A DNA stretch of 36,473 nt, taken from positions 1 to 36,473 of IMG/VR virus record IMGVR_UViG_2713896902_000005; one strand, 5' to 3'. This DNA comes from a virus. Its lineage: Duplodnaviria > Heunggongvirae > Uroviricota > Caudoviricetes. Position 1 is the first letter of the stretch. Each line of letters starts with the position of its first letter. A model generated the notes under the pieces. That model saw nothing but the letters and a program-made list of their open reading frames with translations, had not been told where the DNA came from and ran no database searches. A program made the translations under genes and the position numbers. This document shows, one piece after another, positions 16,664-22,254 of this stretch.

Positions 16664-17163
16664 GACTCGATGATTTTCAGAAACGGGTTAGTGGCTTTCT
16701 TCTGCCCCGCCAGGCCAATCAGACGCTGGCGGCTGCTGGGGTCGAGTCCGAGCATTGCCCCCGTGCTGCTCATCTCGGACTCCTGTTCTTTTTTGGCGGT
16801 CAGCTCCGGATTTTTGACCCTGCCGCCCATTGCACCGGTGATGGTGTTGCCCTGTATGGCAATATTTTTCACGGCACGTCGCCAGAACTCATAGGCCACG
16901 CACCACCGCTCAAGCACCGCGAGGTCAGTCACGCACAACAGGCCCTGACCGCAGAGTTCTTTGGTTGTCAGTTGCCACATGATCGTGGCGAGAGGGAGAT
17001 CTTCTTCAGCGAACCACTCTGGTGGCTCAACACCTTTGATGGGCGTAAAAACAGGTTCATCTTTGTTCAGGGCTCGCTTGCCGGGGTTTCCGGCCAGCGC
17101 CTTGCGCGCCGTTGGCTTGGGGCGACGCCCGGAACGCCCCGCCGTTCCAGCCATATGCGGCAC
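16660..17163 (-). CDS. terS: Terminase small subunit (P27 family)
   Basis: 167 aa, basic N-terminus; immediately upstream of terL. Confidence 0.7.
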
Positions 17164-17279
17164 TCCTGGTTAAATTTCATTTTTCGCGGGTATAAAAAAA
17201 CGATGGGGCGGGCAGTCCGGAAGACGTCAGGTCACAGAGATTTGACCCGCCCCTCCCCTCAGACAGTTGAGAGTTATTA
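17164..17279. other. Candidate cos / packaging recognition region
   Basis: Intergenic between HNH and terS; nested inverted repeats GGGGCGGG (17205-17212) / CCCGCCCC (17246-17253), GGTCA/TGACC and a GACGTC palindrome. Confidence 0.35.
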
Positions 17280-17630
17280 TCACTTAAGCCGTTCACGGGC
17301 CGTCTTCGCCTTATGGCACGGCCAGCACAGACTCTGCAGATTACTGTCGGCATCAGTGCCGCCATGTGCTTTAGGGATGATGTGGTCAACGGTTTTCGCT
17401 TCACGCGCCACACCAGCACGCAGACATAACTGACAAAGGCCTTTGTCACGTTGCAGCACACGCACGCGAATAACATCCCACTTAGAACCATAACCGCGCT
17501 GATGACGGGATTGTCCTGGCTTGTATTGCTTCCAGCCCTCGCTTTTGTGGCTTTCGCAGTAGCCTGACGGGTCTGTGGTGGTATGGCGGCAGCCACGAAC
17601 GCGGCAGGCTTTTGGGGTTCGTGGGGGCAT
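17280..17630 (-). CDS. HNH endonuclease (packaging-associated)
   Basis: 116 aa; motif HIIPKAHGGTDADSNLQSLCWPCH plus N-terminal Cys/His cluster; directly upstream of terS. Confidence 0.8.
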   Translation of the reverse strand: MPPRTPKACRVRGCRHTTTDPSGYCESHKSEGWKQYKPGQSRHQRGYGSKWDVIRVRVLQRDKGLCQLCLRAGVAREAKTVDHIIPKAHGGTDADSNLQSLCWPCHKAKTARERLK

Positions 17631-17654
17631 TGGACACTATCGTTGCTTATGTTT

Positions 17655-17682
17655 ATAAAAAAAGCCCTGCTTACGCAGGGCA
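17655..17682 (-). terminator. Rho-independent terminator
   Basis: Minus-strand RNA GCCCUGC-GUAA-GCAGGGC followed by a 7-U run. Confidence 0.65.
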
Positions 17683-17709
17683 TAAAAACTCAATATTGAT
17701 ACTATGAAT

Positions 17710-17940
17710 CTATTCCAAATCCCAACGTGGAATATTTATTATCTTACCAGGAGTTAAGGAAAATTTGGCTTTCTTCAATATCTCAACATTAGCATCATCA
17801 GGAATCACTAAGAAGTACGAATAGTGCATTTCTCCAGAATTCCCATGATTCTCCTGAATATCATCTTCGCTAACTCCCGACGCTTCAAGCTCATCAACTG
17901 TGAGTCCTAAATAATCAGCTAGCTTTTGTATATCAATCAT
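17710..17940 (-). CDS. Hypothetical small acidic protein (AT-rich moron)
   Basis: 76 aa ORF in a low-GC island between the lysis and packaging modules. Confidence 0.4.
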   Translation of the reverse strand: MIDIQKLADYLGLTVDELEASGVSEDDIQENHGNSGEMHYSYFLVIPDDANVEILKKAKFSLTPGKIINIPRWDLE

Positions 17941-18239
17941 TAATCACCTCACATATCAACGATGAGGCATCATCATCACACACTCTAGCAAAAGCTTCAA
18001 CTTATTGTTATTATTAAAATAATTCTATACAAATTACATCTAATGTATATCCTATGATACGATAGATGCGAATATTAATGACAAACAACCATCGTATTTC
18101 TCTGAAAAATGGCAAGTATCACTCATTATTCCCCATGCATCTATGTACTCTGTTCATGGTCAAGCCATAACTATATTTAATGCAAGAATACGGAAAGTTA
18201 AACAAATAAACGTTGATACACTAACATTCCACAAACTAG

Positions 18240-18533
18240 TTATACTAATGAAGTAGGCAATTCTTCCTCTGAAATTCCCAATACTCTCCTATCGGCCCGC
18301 AATTTTGCTATAGCGCACACTTCACTATAAGATGGTGCGGAGTTCTCAGGATAAAGTACATACTCAAAATGCGGCGGAGGATTGAATATTAAAACTGAAT
18401 ACCCAGCTTCTTGAAGGATATTTTGGACGATTGAATAATAAGGTCTACGCTCATCAAACCAATAACATCCATTCCTTTCTATTGACACGATTGCTTTTTT
18501 TGCGTGCTTCTTATAAACCCATGCCTTATCCAT
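18240..18533 (-). CDS. Hypothetical protein (AT-rich moron)
   Basis: 97 aa ORF in the same low-GC island. Confidence 0.4.
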   Translation of the reverse strand: MDKAWVYKKHAKKAIVSIERNGCYWFDERRPYYSIVQNILQEAGYSVLIFNPPPHFEYVLYPENSAPSYSEVCAIAKLRADRRVLGISEEELPTSLV

Positions 18534-18681
18534 ATCCTGTCAAAAATCTCTCTACGTAATTGAACAATAACACTACGTAGTAGTCATACACCAGAATATC
18601 TAACATATCAATCCAGCAACATTTAATTATTTTAACTTAATATGAAAAAGTCTTCAGTGATTATAATTTCACACCTATATA

Positions 18682-18972
18682 TCAATTCAGTAACTTTTCA
18701 GAGCCTGTGGCCAGTCTTTGGACACGCTGTTGTTGGACAATAGCTCGAATATGAGACTTGTCCGTATTACATTGCCCTAATGCAGATAACAAGCTCGCAT
18801 TTAAGTTGAGACTTGCACCATACGTCAGAGGGTCTGGTATGAGCGGTATAGGTGTTTCAGAAATCAAACTAGTTGGTAGTGGTGTAACCGGAGTGCTCAC
18901 GTAAACTGTCCGCGTACTTCCGCAACCGATCAGCAGCGGCAGCAGGCACAGGACGTGAAGCACAATCATCAT
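18682..18972 (-). CDS. Rz1: o-spanin Rz1-like lipoprotein, from an internal start of the 18682-19140 ORF
   Basis: Internal ATG at 18972 gives MMIVLHVLCLLPLLIGCGS... with lipobox LIGC; begins inside Rz in another frame and extends past the Rz stop. Confidence 0.5.
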   Translation of the reverse strand: MMIVLHVLCLLPLLIGCGSTRTVYVSTPVTPLPTSLISETPIPLIPDPLTYGASLNLNASLLSALGQCNTDKSHIRAIVQQQRVQRLATGSEKLLN

Positions 18973-19249
18973 CCGCAATAGCCATTTTGATATCTTCCTG
19001 GGTTCTCTGTGACTCCAGTGCGATCTGCTGTTTTGCATGCTGGTTAGCCTCCAGAACTGTATTGAAGATTTGTAGTGATTGCAGGACGTTATTGGTAATG
19101 GCTGTTGCTGATTCAGCATTTCGTACAGCCTCATCAGCACGTTTCTTTTCGTGCTGATATTTGCTGTAGTAGTGGTTGGCAGACCAGATGAAAGAACCGA
19201 TGACAGTAAAGATGAATGCAGAGATAGCCAGCTTATAGCTCAACTTCAT
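18869..19249 (-). CDS. Rz: i-spanin Rz-like
   Basis: 126 aa; N-terminal transmembrane helix then charged helical region; directly downstream of the endolysin. Confidence 0.6.
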   Translation of the reverse strand: MKLSYKLAISAFIFTVIGSFIWSANHYYSKYQHEKKRADEAVRNAESATAITNNVLQSLQIFNTVLEANQHAKQQIALESQRTQEDIKMAIADDDCASRPVPAAAADRLRKYADSLREHSGYTTTN

Positions 19250-19709
19250 TTACCACCCCACCAGCCTCTTTAAACCGGGAAATCAGGTCACCGATTTTAT
19301 GTTCATACTGACCGTAACCTGCACCAGGTAACGACGCCCAGATATTGCTGCAACGATCGATAGCCTGACGAATATCGCCGCGATCAATCATCGGTAAAGC
19401 GCCACGCTCTTTAATCTGCTGCAATGCCACAGCATCCTGGTTTTTGGGAGAGAAGTCTTTCAGAGCAAGCTGCTTACGGTAGGCATCCCACCAGCGTGAA
19501 AGAAGCTGATAACGTCCGGCGGCTGTTGATTTGAGTTTGGGGTTTAGCGTGACAAGTTTGCGAGGGTGATCAGAGTAATCAGTAAACAGTTCACCGCCAA
19601 CAATAACATCATAACCGTGATTACGTGTCGGTTGTCGCCCGTTATCCGTTCCTTCTGACCATGCCACCATATCGAGGAAAGCTTTACGCTGGGAATTTAG
19701 TACCTGCAT
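19233..19709 (-). CDS. R: Endolysin, lambda R-like lytic transglycosylase
   Basis: 158 aa; near-identical along its length to lambda R as recalled (QRKAFLDMVAWSEGTDNGRQ...DRGDIRQAIDRCSNIWASLPGAGYGQ). Confidence 0.9.
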   Translation of the reverse strand: MQVLNSQRKAFLDMVAWSEGTDNGRQPTRNHGYDVIVGGELFTDYSDHPRKLVTLNPKLKSTAAGRYQLLSRWWDAYRKQLALKDFSPKNQDAVALQQIKERGALPMIDRGDIRQAIDRCSNIWASLPGAGYGQYEHKIGDLISRFKEAGGVVNEVEL

Positions 19710-19712
19710 AAA

Positions 19713-20048
19713 TTACTCCTTAGAGCCACTAAACTTATTACCGATTACTCGCATTGCAGCTCCACGAATGGCATCAACACCGATCAGCCCAACGCCACCA
19801 CCAATGGCAACAGAAAGCGATTTAGGCCATCCGACATACTCAAGCGCGGATGCAAAAGTCAGCGTCAGAGCACCACAGAGCAAAATCTCGAGCGTTTTTC
19901 GCTTCCAGCCACCACCTCCGCCAAAATAGGCGATACGCAAACCAGCCATAACGATCGACATAATCACTGCCCCCAGCGGGGTGTCTCCACGCCACCAGCT
20001 CTGGAACAACTCCAGCCAGTCCGGCCAAGTATTTGGGTTATGAGGCAT
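19713..20048 (-). CDS. Holin
   Basis: 111 aa with hydrophobic segments and charged C-terminus, immediately upstream of the endolysin. Confidence 0.6.
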   Translation of the reverse strand: MPHNPNTWPDWLELFQSWWRGDTPLGAVIMSIVMAGLRIAYFGGGGGWKRKTLEILLCGALTLTFASALEYVGWPKSLSVAIGGGVGLIGVDAIRGAAMRVIGNKFSGSKE

Positions 20049-20093
20049 TTGTAGTTATCTCTCACCTGCGATTATTTGCGGGTGCTGTGTTGG

Positions 20094-20121
20094 AAATAAA
20101 AAGGCCACCCGAAGGCAGCCT
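20094..20121 (-). terminator. Rho-independent terminator downstream of the NTPase gene
   Basis: Minus-strand RNA AGGCUGCC-UUCG-GGUGGCCU (8 bp including 2 G-U pairs) followed by UUUUAUUU. Confidence 0.5.
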
Positions 20122-20144
20122 GATTTAATTATTCACATTAATCG

Positions 20145-21536
20145 TCACTTAATAGGATTTGGTTTTATGTCGTCAAGCCAGTCGTTATCACCTCTTAGCT
20201 TGGCTACTCGTCCTTCAACATTAGTTAACGGTTTATAAGCAGAGTATTTGCCTATAGCCCTAGCAGAATGCTCTCCAGCAACACGATAATTTTGGAAGTC
20301 CAACTCAAGTCCATGCTGCTCCGCTCTCATTCGAATATAGCCACGAAGCATGTTTTCTCTAAATCGAAACCAAGATGGACGATTCCCTAAAGCAGGGATG
20401 ATGATGCATCCAAATGTCGGTTTCTTCAATGCATTGAACTTTCGCTCAAACGTGGATTTATCTAAAGGTGTTACATCAAGCGATTTGCAAATTTTAACGT
20501 ACGATTCTGATATATGAGTCTTATGTCTGGTCAAATCAGCCATATCGGACATAGCCCAAAGAATATGCTTATATGACTCATCACGTCCCTCTGTTGCATC
20601 CGTGTAACTTTGCCTTAAAGTTTCCGAGACTGAATCAATTGCATCATTTAACCCTTTAATGAAAAGGTTGTAGTCAACAGAGCTGTATTCACGTATTGAG
20701 CTTTGACATGTTAAAAGGATTTTTTCACAAATAAGATGAATGTAGTTCGGGAACCCGTCACTAAGACCCGCAATTTTATAGCGGACAGAATCATCGACAG
20801 TCAGGCCAAACTCATCGAAAGCATTATCAATTATTTGAAAACGACCATTCCATGGTAAACTATCGAGATGTACCTGATGTATTTGTCGCTCACTTGATTT
20901 ATGCCCTCCGATTAAAGTAACGAGAGAATCACCAATCCCCGTAAAAATTAATTTTACTTCACACGCCTGATCACCAAGTTGCTTAATGAGTGATCCAAAC
21001 TTTTGTCGTTCTTCATCAGAGTCAATTTGGTCAAACTCATCGATAACTATATAAGGAATCTTTGAGTGAACTTTAGTTAAAAATTGCAACGCCCGAACGG
21101 CTGCAGAAACTGAGTCAATTTTCAGTTCTGGATAATTATATTTTTGATTTTGACCAGCATTGATACCACCAATTCCAGCCACATTTAAGCCAAAGCTCCA
21201 TCCCTGTGTATCGATTTTCTTATCCTGAGGTGTGCCTCGCAAAATAATGTCATTCATGACACTTGAAAAAGTGGATTCTTTCTCGCAGCCAACCAAAATA
21301 GGTTCAGCATCTTCCTGCAGCTTAAAAGCAACAGTTTGCGCTAAGGATGTCTTTCCTACTCCGCGATCACCATAAATGAAAGCATGCCGACCTGTAGCAT
21401 AAAGCGCCAATTCGAGATCGGTTACATGTTTTTCACGTCCAAATAACAGTTCCATAGAAACAACTGGACCCGTTGGTCGCAAAACTTTATGCAGTTTATG
21501 CATAAAGTCTCGCAAAGAAAGACCTCCACAGAGCAT
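20145..21536 (-). CDS. P-loop NTPase of unknown function (AAA/STAND-like Walker A and B), moron at the Q-S locus
   Basis: 463 aa; Walker A GDRGVGKTS and Walker B hhhhDE (YIVIDEFDQ); clearly lower GC than flanks; bracketed by terminators. Confidence 0.7.
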   Translation of the reverse strand: MLCGGLSLRDFMHKLHKVLRPTGPVVSMELLFGREKHVTDLELALYATGRHAFIYGDRGVGKTSLAQTVAFKLQEDAEPILVGCEKESTFSSVMNDIILRGTPQDKKIDTQGWSFGLNVAGIGGINAGQNQKYNYPELKIDSVSAAVRALQFLTKVHSKIPYIVIDEFDQIDSDEERQKFGSLIKQLGDQACEVKLIFTGIGDSLVTLIGGHKSSERQIHQVHLDSLPWNGRFQIIDNAFDEFGLTVDDSVRYKIAGLSDGFPNYIHLICEKILLTCQSSIREYSSVDYNLFIKGLNDAIDSVSETLRQSYTDATEGRDESYKHILWAMSDMADLTRHKTHISESYVKICKSLDVTPLDKSTFERKFNALKKPTFGCIIIPALGNRPSWFRFRENMLRGYIRMRAEQHGLELDFQNYRVAGEHSARAIGKYSAYKPLTNVEGRVAKLRGDNDWLDDIKPNPIK

Positions 21537-21602
21537 TTTTATTCTCCTGCATTTTTTTCGAAAACTATAACATCATTCTTTTTGGCAAGCCTTTCCTAAA
21601 CG

Positions 21603-21625
21603 CAAAAACCCGCACAATGGCGGGT
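21603..21625 (-). terminator. Candidate tR'-like terminator downstream of Q
   Basis: Minus-strand hairpin ACCCGC-CAUUGU-GCGGGU followed by UUUUU, about 50 nt after the Q stop. Confidence 0.5.
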
Positions 21626-21675
21626 TCTTACTATTATGTTGCTCAGTTCGCTTTTCGTCCCGAGCTTATCACAAT

Positions 21676-22254
21676 TCAAGCACTTTCTTGCTCACTTTGC
21701 AATTTAAATCTGTCGCTATTTGTGCCAAACGCATCACATAGTGGAGCGTACAGGAGCGATTCGGCCAAACTTATCCATGTGTCAACTCGGCGGCGACAGG
21801 TAATGAATGCCCAGTCAGGATGTTTAATATGAAGCTCATTGGCCATTTGCAACTTGCTCTTACGCAGACGATACCGGCCAACAATCACACCGTATAGAGA
21901 ACGGTAATCATTATTCATCAGCACCGAGGCGATCACACCGTCAATCTTCAGGCCTTCATCGTCCGAGCAAAACGCCAGACTACTTTTGTTTTTACTGTTG
22001 AGTATTTCGCGCAAATAAGCTTCGAGCTCTGGTTTCGTAATGCCTGACTTTTTCATACGGCGCAGCGCATCGTTGATTGCAGTTTTGGTAATTTTGCTGG
22101 ATACAAGCAGTTGGTTAAACATGTTACCGCTAGTCCCTCCACTGATATAAGACCAACGCCCCCACATGCGGAGCTTCCCCTGAACCCAGATACTTTCCAG
22201 AGTACGAAGACGAACCATTTCACCCGTTTTGCCAATTTCAGAAGGATTAATCAT
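21676..22254 (-). CDS. Late-gene antitermination protein Q-like
   Basis: 192 aa; position immediately upstream of the tR'-like hairpin and lysis genes; motif resemblance (RMWGRWSY, CSDDEG) to QuuD-type Q proteins as recalled. Confidence 0.55.
   Translation of the reverse strand: MINPSEIGKTGEMVRLRTLESIWVQGKLRMWGRWSYISGGTSGNMFNQLLVSSKITKTAINDALRRMKKSGITKPELEAYLREILNSKNKSSLAFCSDDEGLKIDGVIASVLMNNDYRSLYGVIVGRYRLRKSKLQMANELHIKHPDWAFITCRRRVDTWISLAESLLYAPLCDAFGTNSDRFKLQSEQESA

Follow-up and report, generated by a model that had tools for sequence, protein, structure and literature searches.

The window analysed here, a stretch of 36,473 nucleotides from the IMG/VR virus record IMGVR_UViG_2713896902_000005 (positions 1 to 36,473), belongs to an Escherichia coli prophage whose head and packaging module is of HK97 type and whose tail is contractile. 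Between its lysis and packaging modules lies a cargo island of 1051 bp and low guanine plus cytosine (GC) content (17631..18681), which fills the junction between the genes of Rz1 and of an HNH endonuclease, and which was delimited by composition, by alignment with the empty site of a sibling prophage, and by the cargo swaps observed in other siblings. As an original prediction made from the sequence of the window had described, the island contains two small open reading frames (ORFs) on the minus strand, ORF2 (18240..18533), coding for 97 amino acids, and ORF1 (17710..17940), coding for 76, both labelled as hypothetical proteins by RefSeq in sibling genomes. The flank on the transcription-upstream side (18682..19249, minus strand) consists of Rz (18869..19249) and the embedded Rz1/LysC gene, which ends at 18682. 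Downstream of the island and outside it, the HNH gene of the packaging module (17280..17630, minus strand), which is kept in siblings lacking the island, is followed by a P27-type small terminase and then by the large terminase. Both flanks were assigned from the ORF list and RefSeq annotation.

GC content ranges from 0.32 to 0.40 over positions 17600-18800, compared with 0.53-0.60 in the packaging genes to the left and 0.44-0.51 in the lysis genes to the right, and the island as a whole stands at 0.344 against 0.506 for the whole window, a composition of the kind expected from a phage moron. The low-GC character attributed to the locus was thus confirmed, as were its long AT-rich spacers, which are the most AT-rich parts of the island: 299 nt between ORF2 and ORF1 (17941..18239, minus strand, GC 0.318), conserved elsewhere only in the ~100 nt proximal to ORF1, and 148 nt upstream of ORF2 (18534..18681, minus strand, GC 0.277). 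The corresponding values for ORF1 and ORF2 are 0.368 and 0.388. The start of the island, originally placed at 17683, fell slightly short, since the alignment with the empty sibling site sets the left edge at 17631, immediately upstream of the HNH ATG, and includes the terminator described below. A scan of positions 17000-22000 against Rfam returned nothing relevant and no match in the 299-nt spacer. The spacer upstream of ORF2, in which a promoter is only presumed, contains two TACGTA palindromes (18553..18558 and 18574..18579) spaced 21 nt, or two helical turns, apart, and the pair could be an operator.

The island was found in only 8 of 5426 complete E. coli genomes, at 98.8-99.2% identity, whereas 1265 of them gave a match to at least a portion of the flanks, HNH or Rz/Rz1. 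In one sibling locus (L029) the slot is empty, with only 26 nt from the HNH start to the Rz1 stop, and in others it is occupied by different cargo: two opposite-strand genes (L030), a gene for a GrlR-family protein (L031), single uncharacterised genes (L032, L046, L047 and L049), or a ClpP-like protease gene together with an uncharacterised gene of 182 amino acids on the opposite strand (L048, 831-2028). This presence and absence at the same junction among related prophages is the pattern expected of a moron, and the GC content of the sibling cargo (L030-L032, L045-L049) lies between 0.33 and 0.46. PADLOC models matched none of the nine other cargos of the slot; the protease and its 182-amino-acid companion, likewise without a PADLOC match, may constitute an undescribed two-gene system. 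The 184-amino-acid cargo of L047 (682-1236) shares its N-terminal 48 residues with a gene of the lambdoid locus L008 (6586-7137; 58% identity, E 1e-17) that adjoins an ORF1 homologue, and because of this common domain we consider that the E. coli prophage and lambdoid backbones draw on one cargo pool. In the E. coli strain PCP06173 (NZ_CM129873.1, hits H9 and H13) an IS3-family element splits the island, which is therefore dispensable at least in that lysogen.

ORF1 encodes, as anticipated, a strongly acidic protein (isoelectric point 4.38, net charge -9), which matches the profile of phrog_31861, a family lacking functional annotation, from end to end (E 9.6e-36, residues 1-76 on positions 1-76 of 83). 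Its identical sequence is present on 487 contigs. With tblastn, neither ORF1 nor ORF2 was matched in any of 50,697 deposited phage genomes, so that phrog_31861 has been seen only in prophages. An in-frame stop codon 6 nt upstream of the ATG indicates that ORF1 is truly a stand-alone form of a conserved acidic domain, with no N-terminal extension. Homologues with 76-80% identity occur in Citrobacter and Salmonella lambdoid phages, where they immediately follow a different Rz/Rz1 pair and precede Nu1/gpA; in these lambda-like loci other cargo genes adjoin ORF1 and ORF2 is absent. Relative to these homologues, the ratio of nonsynonymous to synonymous substitution rates (dN/dS) is 0.14-0.22 at dS 0.6-0.77.

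DNA alignment with the lambdoid loci L005, L008 and L009 delimits a mobile unit of 385 bp (17655..18039, minus strand), composed of a conserved upstream block, the ORF1 gene and a terminator. The 99 nt that precede the ORF1 ATG are 81-83% identical and the coding sequence 82%, with third codon positions at 66%; just past the homology limits at 18039 and 17655, identity is no more than 31-40%. The upstream block is, accordingly, more constrained than silent sites. A promoter-like site, TATACA-16-TAGAAT, was located upstream of ORF1 (18022..18049, minus strand) by consensus scan and alignment, and its -10 element TAGAAT is kept in all homologous cassettes. A search of viral contigs for use of this promoter and untranslated region (UTR) motif by other genes matched only the four known cassettes. 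Within the 5'UTR, RNAalifold predicts a hairpin (17928..17983, minus strand) in which CCUCA would pair with the Shine-Dalgarno sequence UGAGG and which would cover the ORF1 start codon, with 19 pairs kept in four sequences and one compensatory pair. On the other side of the gene, a sequence scan identified a putative intrinsic terminator hairpin (GCCCTGCGTAAGCAGGGC; 17664..17681, minus strand), with a 7-bp stem that includes 6 G-C pairs, followed by a T7 run; in the aligned lambdoid cassettes the stem is kept and the loop varies. The original prediction had assigned the two genes their own terminator, which is correct for ORF1, whose hairpin and T run extend over 17681..17664, but ORF2 has no separate one.

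ORF2 is neutral (isoelectric point 6.72, net charge 0) and has a weak Shine-Dalgarno sequence at short spacing. A word-indexed search recovered near-identical copies only, the ORF2 cluster being present in both E. coli and E. albertii, while an exhaustive HMMER pass over 1.84 billion representatives yielded 11 relatives and a profile search 15. These proteins of 93-106 residues are 27-59% identical and have in common the motifs G-x-(Y/H)-W, P-P-x-(W/F)-E-x-V, I-A-x-x-R and G-x-x-x-x-L-P. The confidently predicted fold of ORF2 matches over its full length the crystal structure of the uncharacterised protein PA2723 of Pseudomonas aeruginosa PAO1 (PDB 6TCB); at the sequence level, a profile of 12 family members matches 6TCB end to end but weakly (E 0.058). 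ORF2 is a new member of this uncharacterised PA2723/6TCB structural family of small alpha/beta proteins, which is uncurated: no model in Pfam, PHROG or NCBIfam matches any of its members or PA2723, and literature searches for PA2723, 6TCB or the RefSeq accessions found nothing relevant. Further contexts of the family were sought in genome, viral and metagenome contig collections, and none were found. The orthologue of PA2723 in Pseudomonas paraeruginosa (L028 7567-8273) is chromosomal, in contrast to ORF2, which is lone prophage cargo, and overlaps by 4 nt an upstream gene of the GFA family (PF04828). A DUF6348 gene lies nearby on the other strand, in what is apparently ordinary chromosome, this locus being the one genomic setting recovered for the crystallised protein.

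In a region with such long spacers, with a weak Shine-Dalgarno sequence before ORF2 and with an IS3 insertion in one strain, one might suspect reading frames that arose by chance or are decaying in AT-rich junk DNA. This explanation is exceedingly unlikely in view of the purifying selection on ORF1 and its exact recurrence on 487 contigs, and of the deep conservation of ORF2, with its confident fold, its match to a crystal structure and its presence in two species. Both ORFs encode real, selected proteins and, as the original prediction required, they are conserved and neither has been assigned a structural function.

Taken together, the comparisons favour, with a probability of roughly 0.7, the interpretation that the island consists of two moron cassettes, acquired independently of each other and placed one behind the other in a slot between Rz1 and HNH that permits recombination. 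Four parts of this interpretation are demonstrated by comparison, namely the presence or absence of the island in siblings, its foreign composition, the existence of a discrete mobile unit with a terminator, and the selection acting on the proteins. In addition, on the evidence of genomic context, ORF1 and ORF2 are not a functional pair, each being found elsewhere without the other. In a Proteus mirabilis prophage, for instance, a relative of ORF2 lies between the small terminase and an Rz-type lysis gene, on the opposite strand and without ORF1, and besides the effector and pyocin neighbourhoods described below, ORF2 relatives without ORF1 occur in three other settings.

The occurrence of ORF1 extends beyond prophages. 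Relatives found on plasmids by tblastn are 32-41% identical (37-42% in a MAFFT alignment), and in these the ORF1 domain constitutes the C-terminal ~70 residues of proteins of 127-129 amino acids (e.g. WP_250670801.1 and WP_132714722.1), which have the loop G-N-S-G-E-M-x-Y-x-Y in common with ORF1, differ from it in having an N-terminal double CxxC zinc ribbon, and are likewise uncharacterised. ORF1 is thus a member of the unannotated phrog_31861 and, more broadly, of an unnamed family of acidic domains, which on plasmids are fused to a zinc ribbon. The fused form, represented by the loci L037 (648-1031) and L038-L042, was found on 12 plasmids, 11 of them from Vibrio or Photobacterium (9 conjugative and 2 mobilizable) and one from Enterobacter, the latter a 5-kb mobilizable plasmid of ColKP3 type that carries just one cargo gene apart from the one for the ORF1 domain. 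The large plasmids carry the fused gene within one-directional arrays of small uncharacterised genes that also hold genes for an orphan methylase, ParA, MqsRA, DUF2513, FRG or GNAT proteins, and in two of these plasmids a GNAT acetyltransferase gene lies ~120 nt downstream of the zinc-ribbon gene. The layout of the tra genes does not establish a leading-region placement of these arrays. Acidity is conserved in the C-terminal domain of the plasmid relatives (net charge -11 to -14, isoelectric point about 4.05), and when phage forms are compared with plasmid forms, conservation is highest in a loop, N-x-G-x-S-x-x-M-x-Y-x-Y, and in the hydrophobic residues of the core; the acidic run E25-D27 of ORF1 is missing from the plasmid forms. 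No plasmid match was obtained for ORF2 by tblastn.

These features bear on the explanation advanced originally, that small acidic proteins at this position are DNA mimics, anti-defence factors or host-takeover genes. In its full form this would have ORF1 inhibit restriction or defence enzymes, as a DNA mimic or by other means, with ORF2 as a further counter-defence or host-takeover factor. Small mimics such as Ugi or AcrIIA4 have a charge in the same range as ORF1 (isoelectric point 4.38, with relatives at net -11 to -14 over some 70-80 residues), the ORF1 family is confined to mobile elements, and the zinc-ribbon fusions on the 12 plasmids keep company with orphan methylase, ParA and toxin-antitoxin genes. 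The search for a mimic fold suggested at the outset was unsuccessful, however: an AlphaFold2 (AF2) model of ORF1 (pLDDT 84.3) was obtained, but no sequence or fold similarity to solved structures was found. Furthermore, the acidic residues of ORF1 are not its best-conserved positions, anti-defence genes are needed early and a late-operon position fits them poorly, and ORF2 is not acidic, the charge argument applying to ORF1 only. What survives of the original explanation is therefore an acidic ORF1 carried as mobile-element cargo and two uncharacterised proteins, and not the mimic fold or a common acidic character, and we regard anti-defence as a distinctly unlikely account of the two genes.

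A different set of possibilities arises from the neighbourhoods of ORF2 relatives, in which the cargo would protect the lysogen through superinfection exclusion, as an abortive-infection or toxin-antitoxin pair, or with ORF2 as an orphan immunity or antitoxin-like protein that would neutralise the toxin of a competitor. In one lineage, represented by two related contigs (L017 4317-8114 and L026 2868-5950), the ORF2 relative lies two genes downstream of an XVIPCD-type effector (X-Tfe) of a type IV secretion system, in an element whose other genes include coupling-protein-like, RadC and TIR ones; a conserved protein of 144 amino acids, 82% identical between the two contigs, is encoded between the effector and the ORF2 relative. 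Another relative, without ORF1, lies near an S-type pyocin gene on the other strand and an insertion sequence. The Proteus relative is antisense to the late operon, as is lambda bor. Moreover, a moron in a prophage hotspot occupies the type of site that houses lysogen-expressed defence cargo, and such lysogen-expressed cargo typically serves defence or conversion (bioRxiv 10.1101/2024.10.15.618418).

Several observations nevertheless make lysogen protection very unlikely as an explanation. Neither ORF1 nor ORF2 was matched at E <= 1 by the antiphage models of PADLOC-DB 2.0 and NCBIfam, and PADLOC and NCBIfam antiphage searches gave no match for the nine other slot cargos either; across Pfam, NCBIfam, PADLOC and PHROGs the only match for the two proteins was the unannotated phrog_31861 with ORF1. 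Judging from sequence, neither has a membrane segment as found in many exclusion proteins. Their lack of co-conservation and the 299-nt gap between them argue against a classic type II toxin-antitoxin pair, and the window island contains no toxin gene. The X-Tfe contexts derive from a single lineage, and the idea of ORF2 as an immunity protein is weakened by the gene upstream of the effector, which appears by eye in L026 to encode a lipoprotein-like signal sequence; the product of this upstream gene is probably the more likely immunity protein. Finally, an all-against-all BLAST comparison of the neighbours of the ORF2 family revealed no conserved partner. Nuclease-like neighbours noted by eye (a weak HNH motif in L015, a GIY-YIG-like one in L024 and a PD-(D/E)xK-like one in the 144-amino-acid protein) were dropped, as sequence searches in Pfam, NCBIfam and PDB gave them no backing. 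Also seen in these loci were, in L017, a protein of 87 amino acids with net charge -16 encoded next after the ORF2-family member and, in L026, a protein of 250 amino acids ending, by eye, in a RelE/ParE-like motif.

Under the interpretation of two independent morons, ORF1 would have a sigma-70 promoter and a terminator of its own, at which its transcription in the lysogen starts and ends, and antiterminated late transcription should also cross both genes, since they lie on the late strand. The two products would be small, soluble, cytoplasmic proteins with no catalytic motif, an assignment in which our confidence is low, and given this size and lack of catalytic motifs they probably bind a partner. 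ORF1 might inhibit a basic partner stoichiometrically or serve as a decoy for it, and this partner might be a host protein, or one from a rival element, that binds nucleic acids; although confidence in this step is low, such a mode is the most plausible one for ORF1 because its negative charge is conserved (net -9 to -14 over about 75 residues). That ORF1 is an inhibitor of any kind is a tentative possibility, on the doubtful side. ORF2 might also work alone, a possibility suggested by its repeated occurrence, as a single gene, in prophages and other mobile islands.

Some points weigh against the reading of two independent cassettes. Every E. coli copy of the island carries both genes, and a joint function within the island is for this reason conceivable. 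The consensus scan gives fewer promoter-like sites than shuffled sequence, so that support for the ORF1 site comes from its conserved -10 element and not from scan statistics, and the same scan found no promoter-like site upstream of ORF2. The 5'UTR hairpin has a single-sequence z-score of -1.33, which is not significant; the translational control of ORF1 at which it possibly hints lacks statistical support and is not counted as evidence. As to biochemistry, the proposal is held with low confidence, being based on size, charge and genomic context only: searches for ORF1 found no partner, fold relative or annotated homologue, and the sole structural relative of ORF2, PA2723, is itself uncharacterised.

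A bolder extension of the two-moron reading would make ORF1 the minimal stand-alone form of an undescribed acidic inhibitor domain, found in prophage morons and, fused to a zinc ribbon, on conjugative or mobilizable plasmids. The domain would neutralise a host or rival protein that binds nucleic acids (e.g. a restriction or defence enzyme, or the nucleoid silencer H-NS), so that ORF1 would represent a new fold serving anti-defence or establishment, while ORF2 would place the PA2723/6TCB family for the first time in a functional context, that of mobile-element cargo. We consider this combination unlikely.

Elsewhere in the window, a second low-GC cargo gene (20145..21536, minus strand, GC 0.36-0.43) separates the antiterminator region from the holin gene. 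It codes for a P-loop ATPase of 463 amino acids, whose matches to TIGR02928 (ORC/Cdc6-type, 4.7e-9) and to the PADLOC model mad8 (2e-4) are at the level of the P-loop only and for which no sequence relative was found in PDB. In the sibling locus L001 a DNA methyltransferase gene takes its place, and the ATPase gene, as a candidate for a role in defence, would occupy a second swap slot.

If the island is indeed composed of two morons, the Rz1|HNH junction of a widespread E. coli prophage type is a swap site whose cargo pool is common with that of Citrobacter and Salmonella lambdoid phages, and the orphan crystal structure 6TCB of PA2723 becomes tied to a small family found mostly on mobile elements. 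It would also follow that a compact cassette of 385 bp encodes a conserved acidic domain present on plasmids as well, and is thus a cheap candidate for inhibitor or anti-defence screening. Since roughly 90% of hotspot cargo is unannotated (bioRxiv 10.1101/2024.10.15.618418), two more uncharacterised small genes come as no surprise.

Among known systems, ORF1 resembles the small acidic mimics in being small, strongly negative and borne by mobile elements, and differs from them in having no sequence or fold similarity to them, in that its acidic residues are not the best conserved, and in its late-operon position. Ocr, ArdA, Ugi, AcrIIA4 and Arn are the small acidic DNA-mimic inhibitors considered in this comparison. 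The island itself compares more closely with phage morons, an example being bor, which lambda carries in the slot after Rz. ORF1 and ORF2 differ from such cargo in that their products are predicted to be soluble and cytoplasmic, unlike the envelope proteins Bor and Lom. Phage morons, as cited in bioRxiv 10.1101/2024.10.15.618418, were defined for HK97 and HK022 by Juhala, Hendrix and colleagues, and the island agrees with them in its variable presence at the same junction, its low GC content and its position between two late-operon modules, as well as in the terminator that follows ORF1 and the conserved promoter-like block that precedes it. It departs from them in stacking two unrelated cassettes, and in that autonomous expression in the lysogen is here a prediction from sequence. 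The phage moron is the closest known kind and, if our reading is right, the region adds one more ordinary case to a well-known phenomenon, that of morons in a cargo hotspot.
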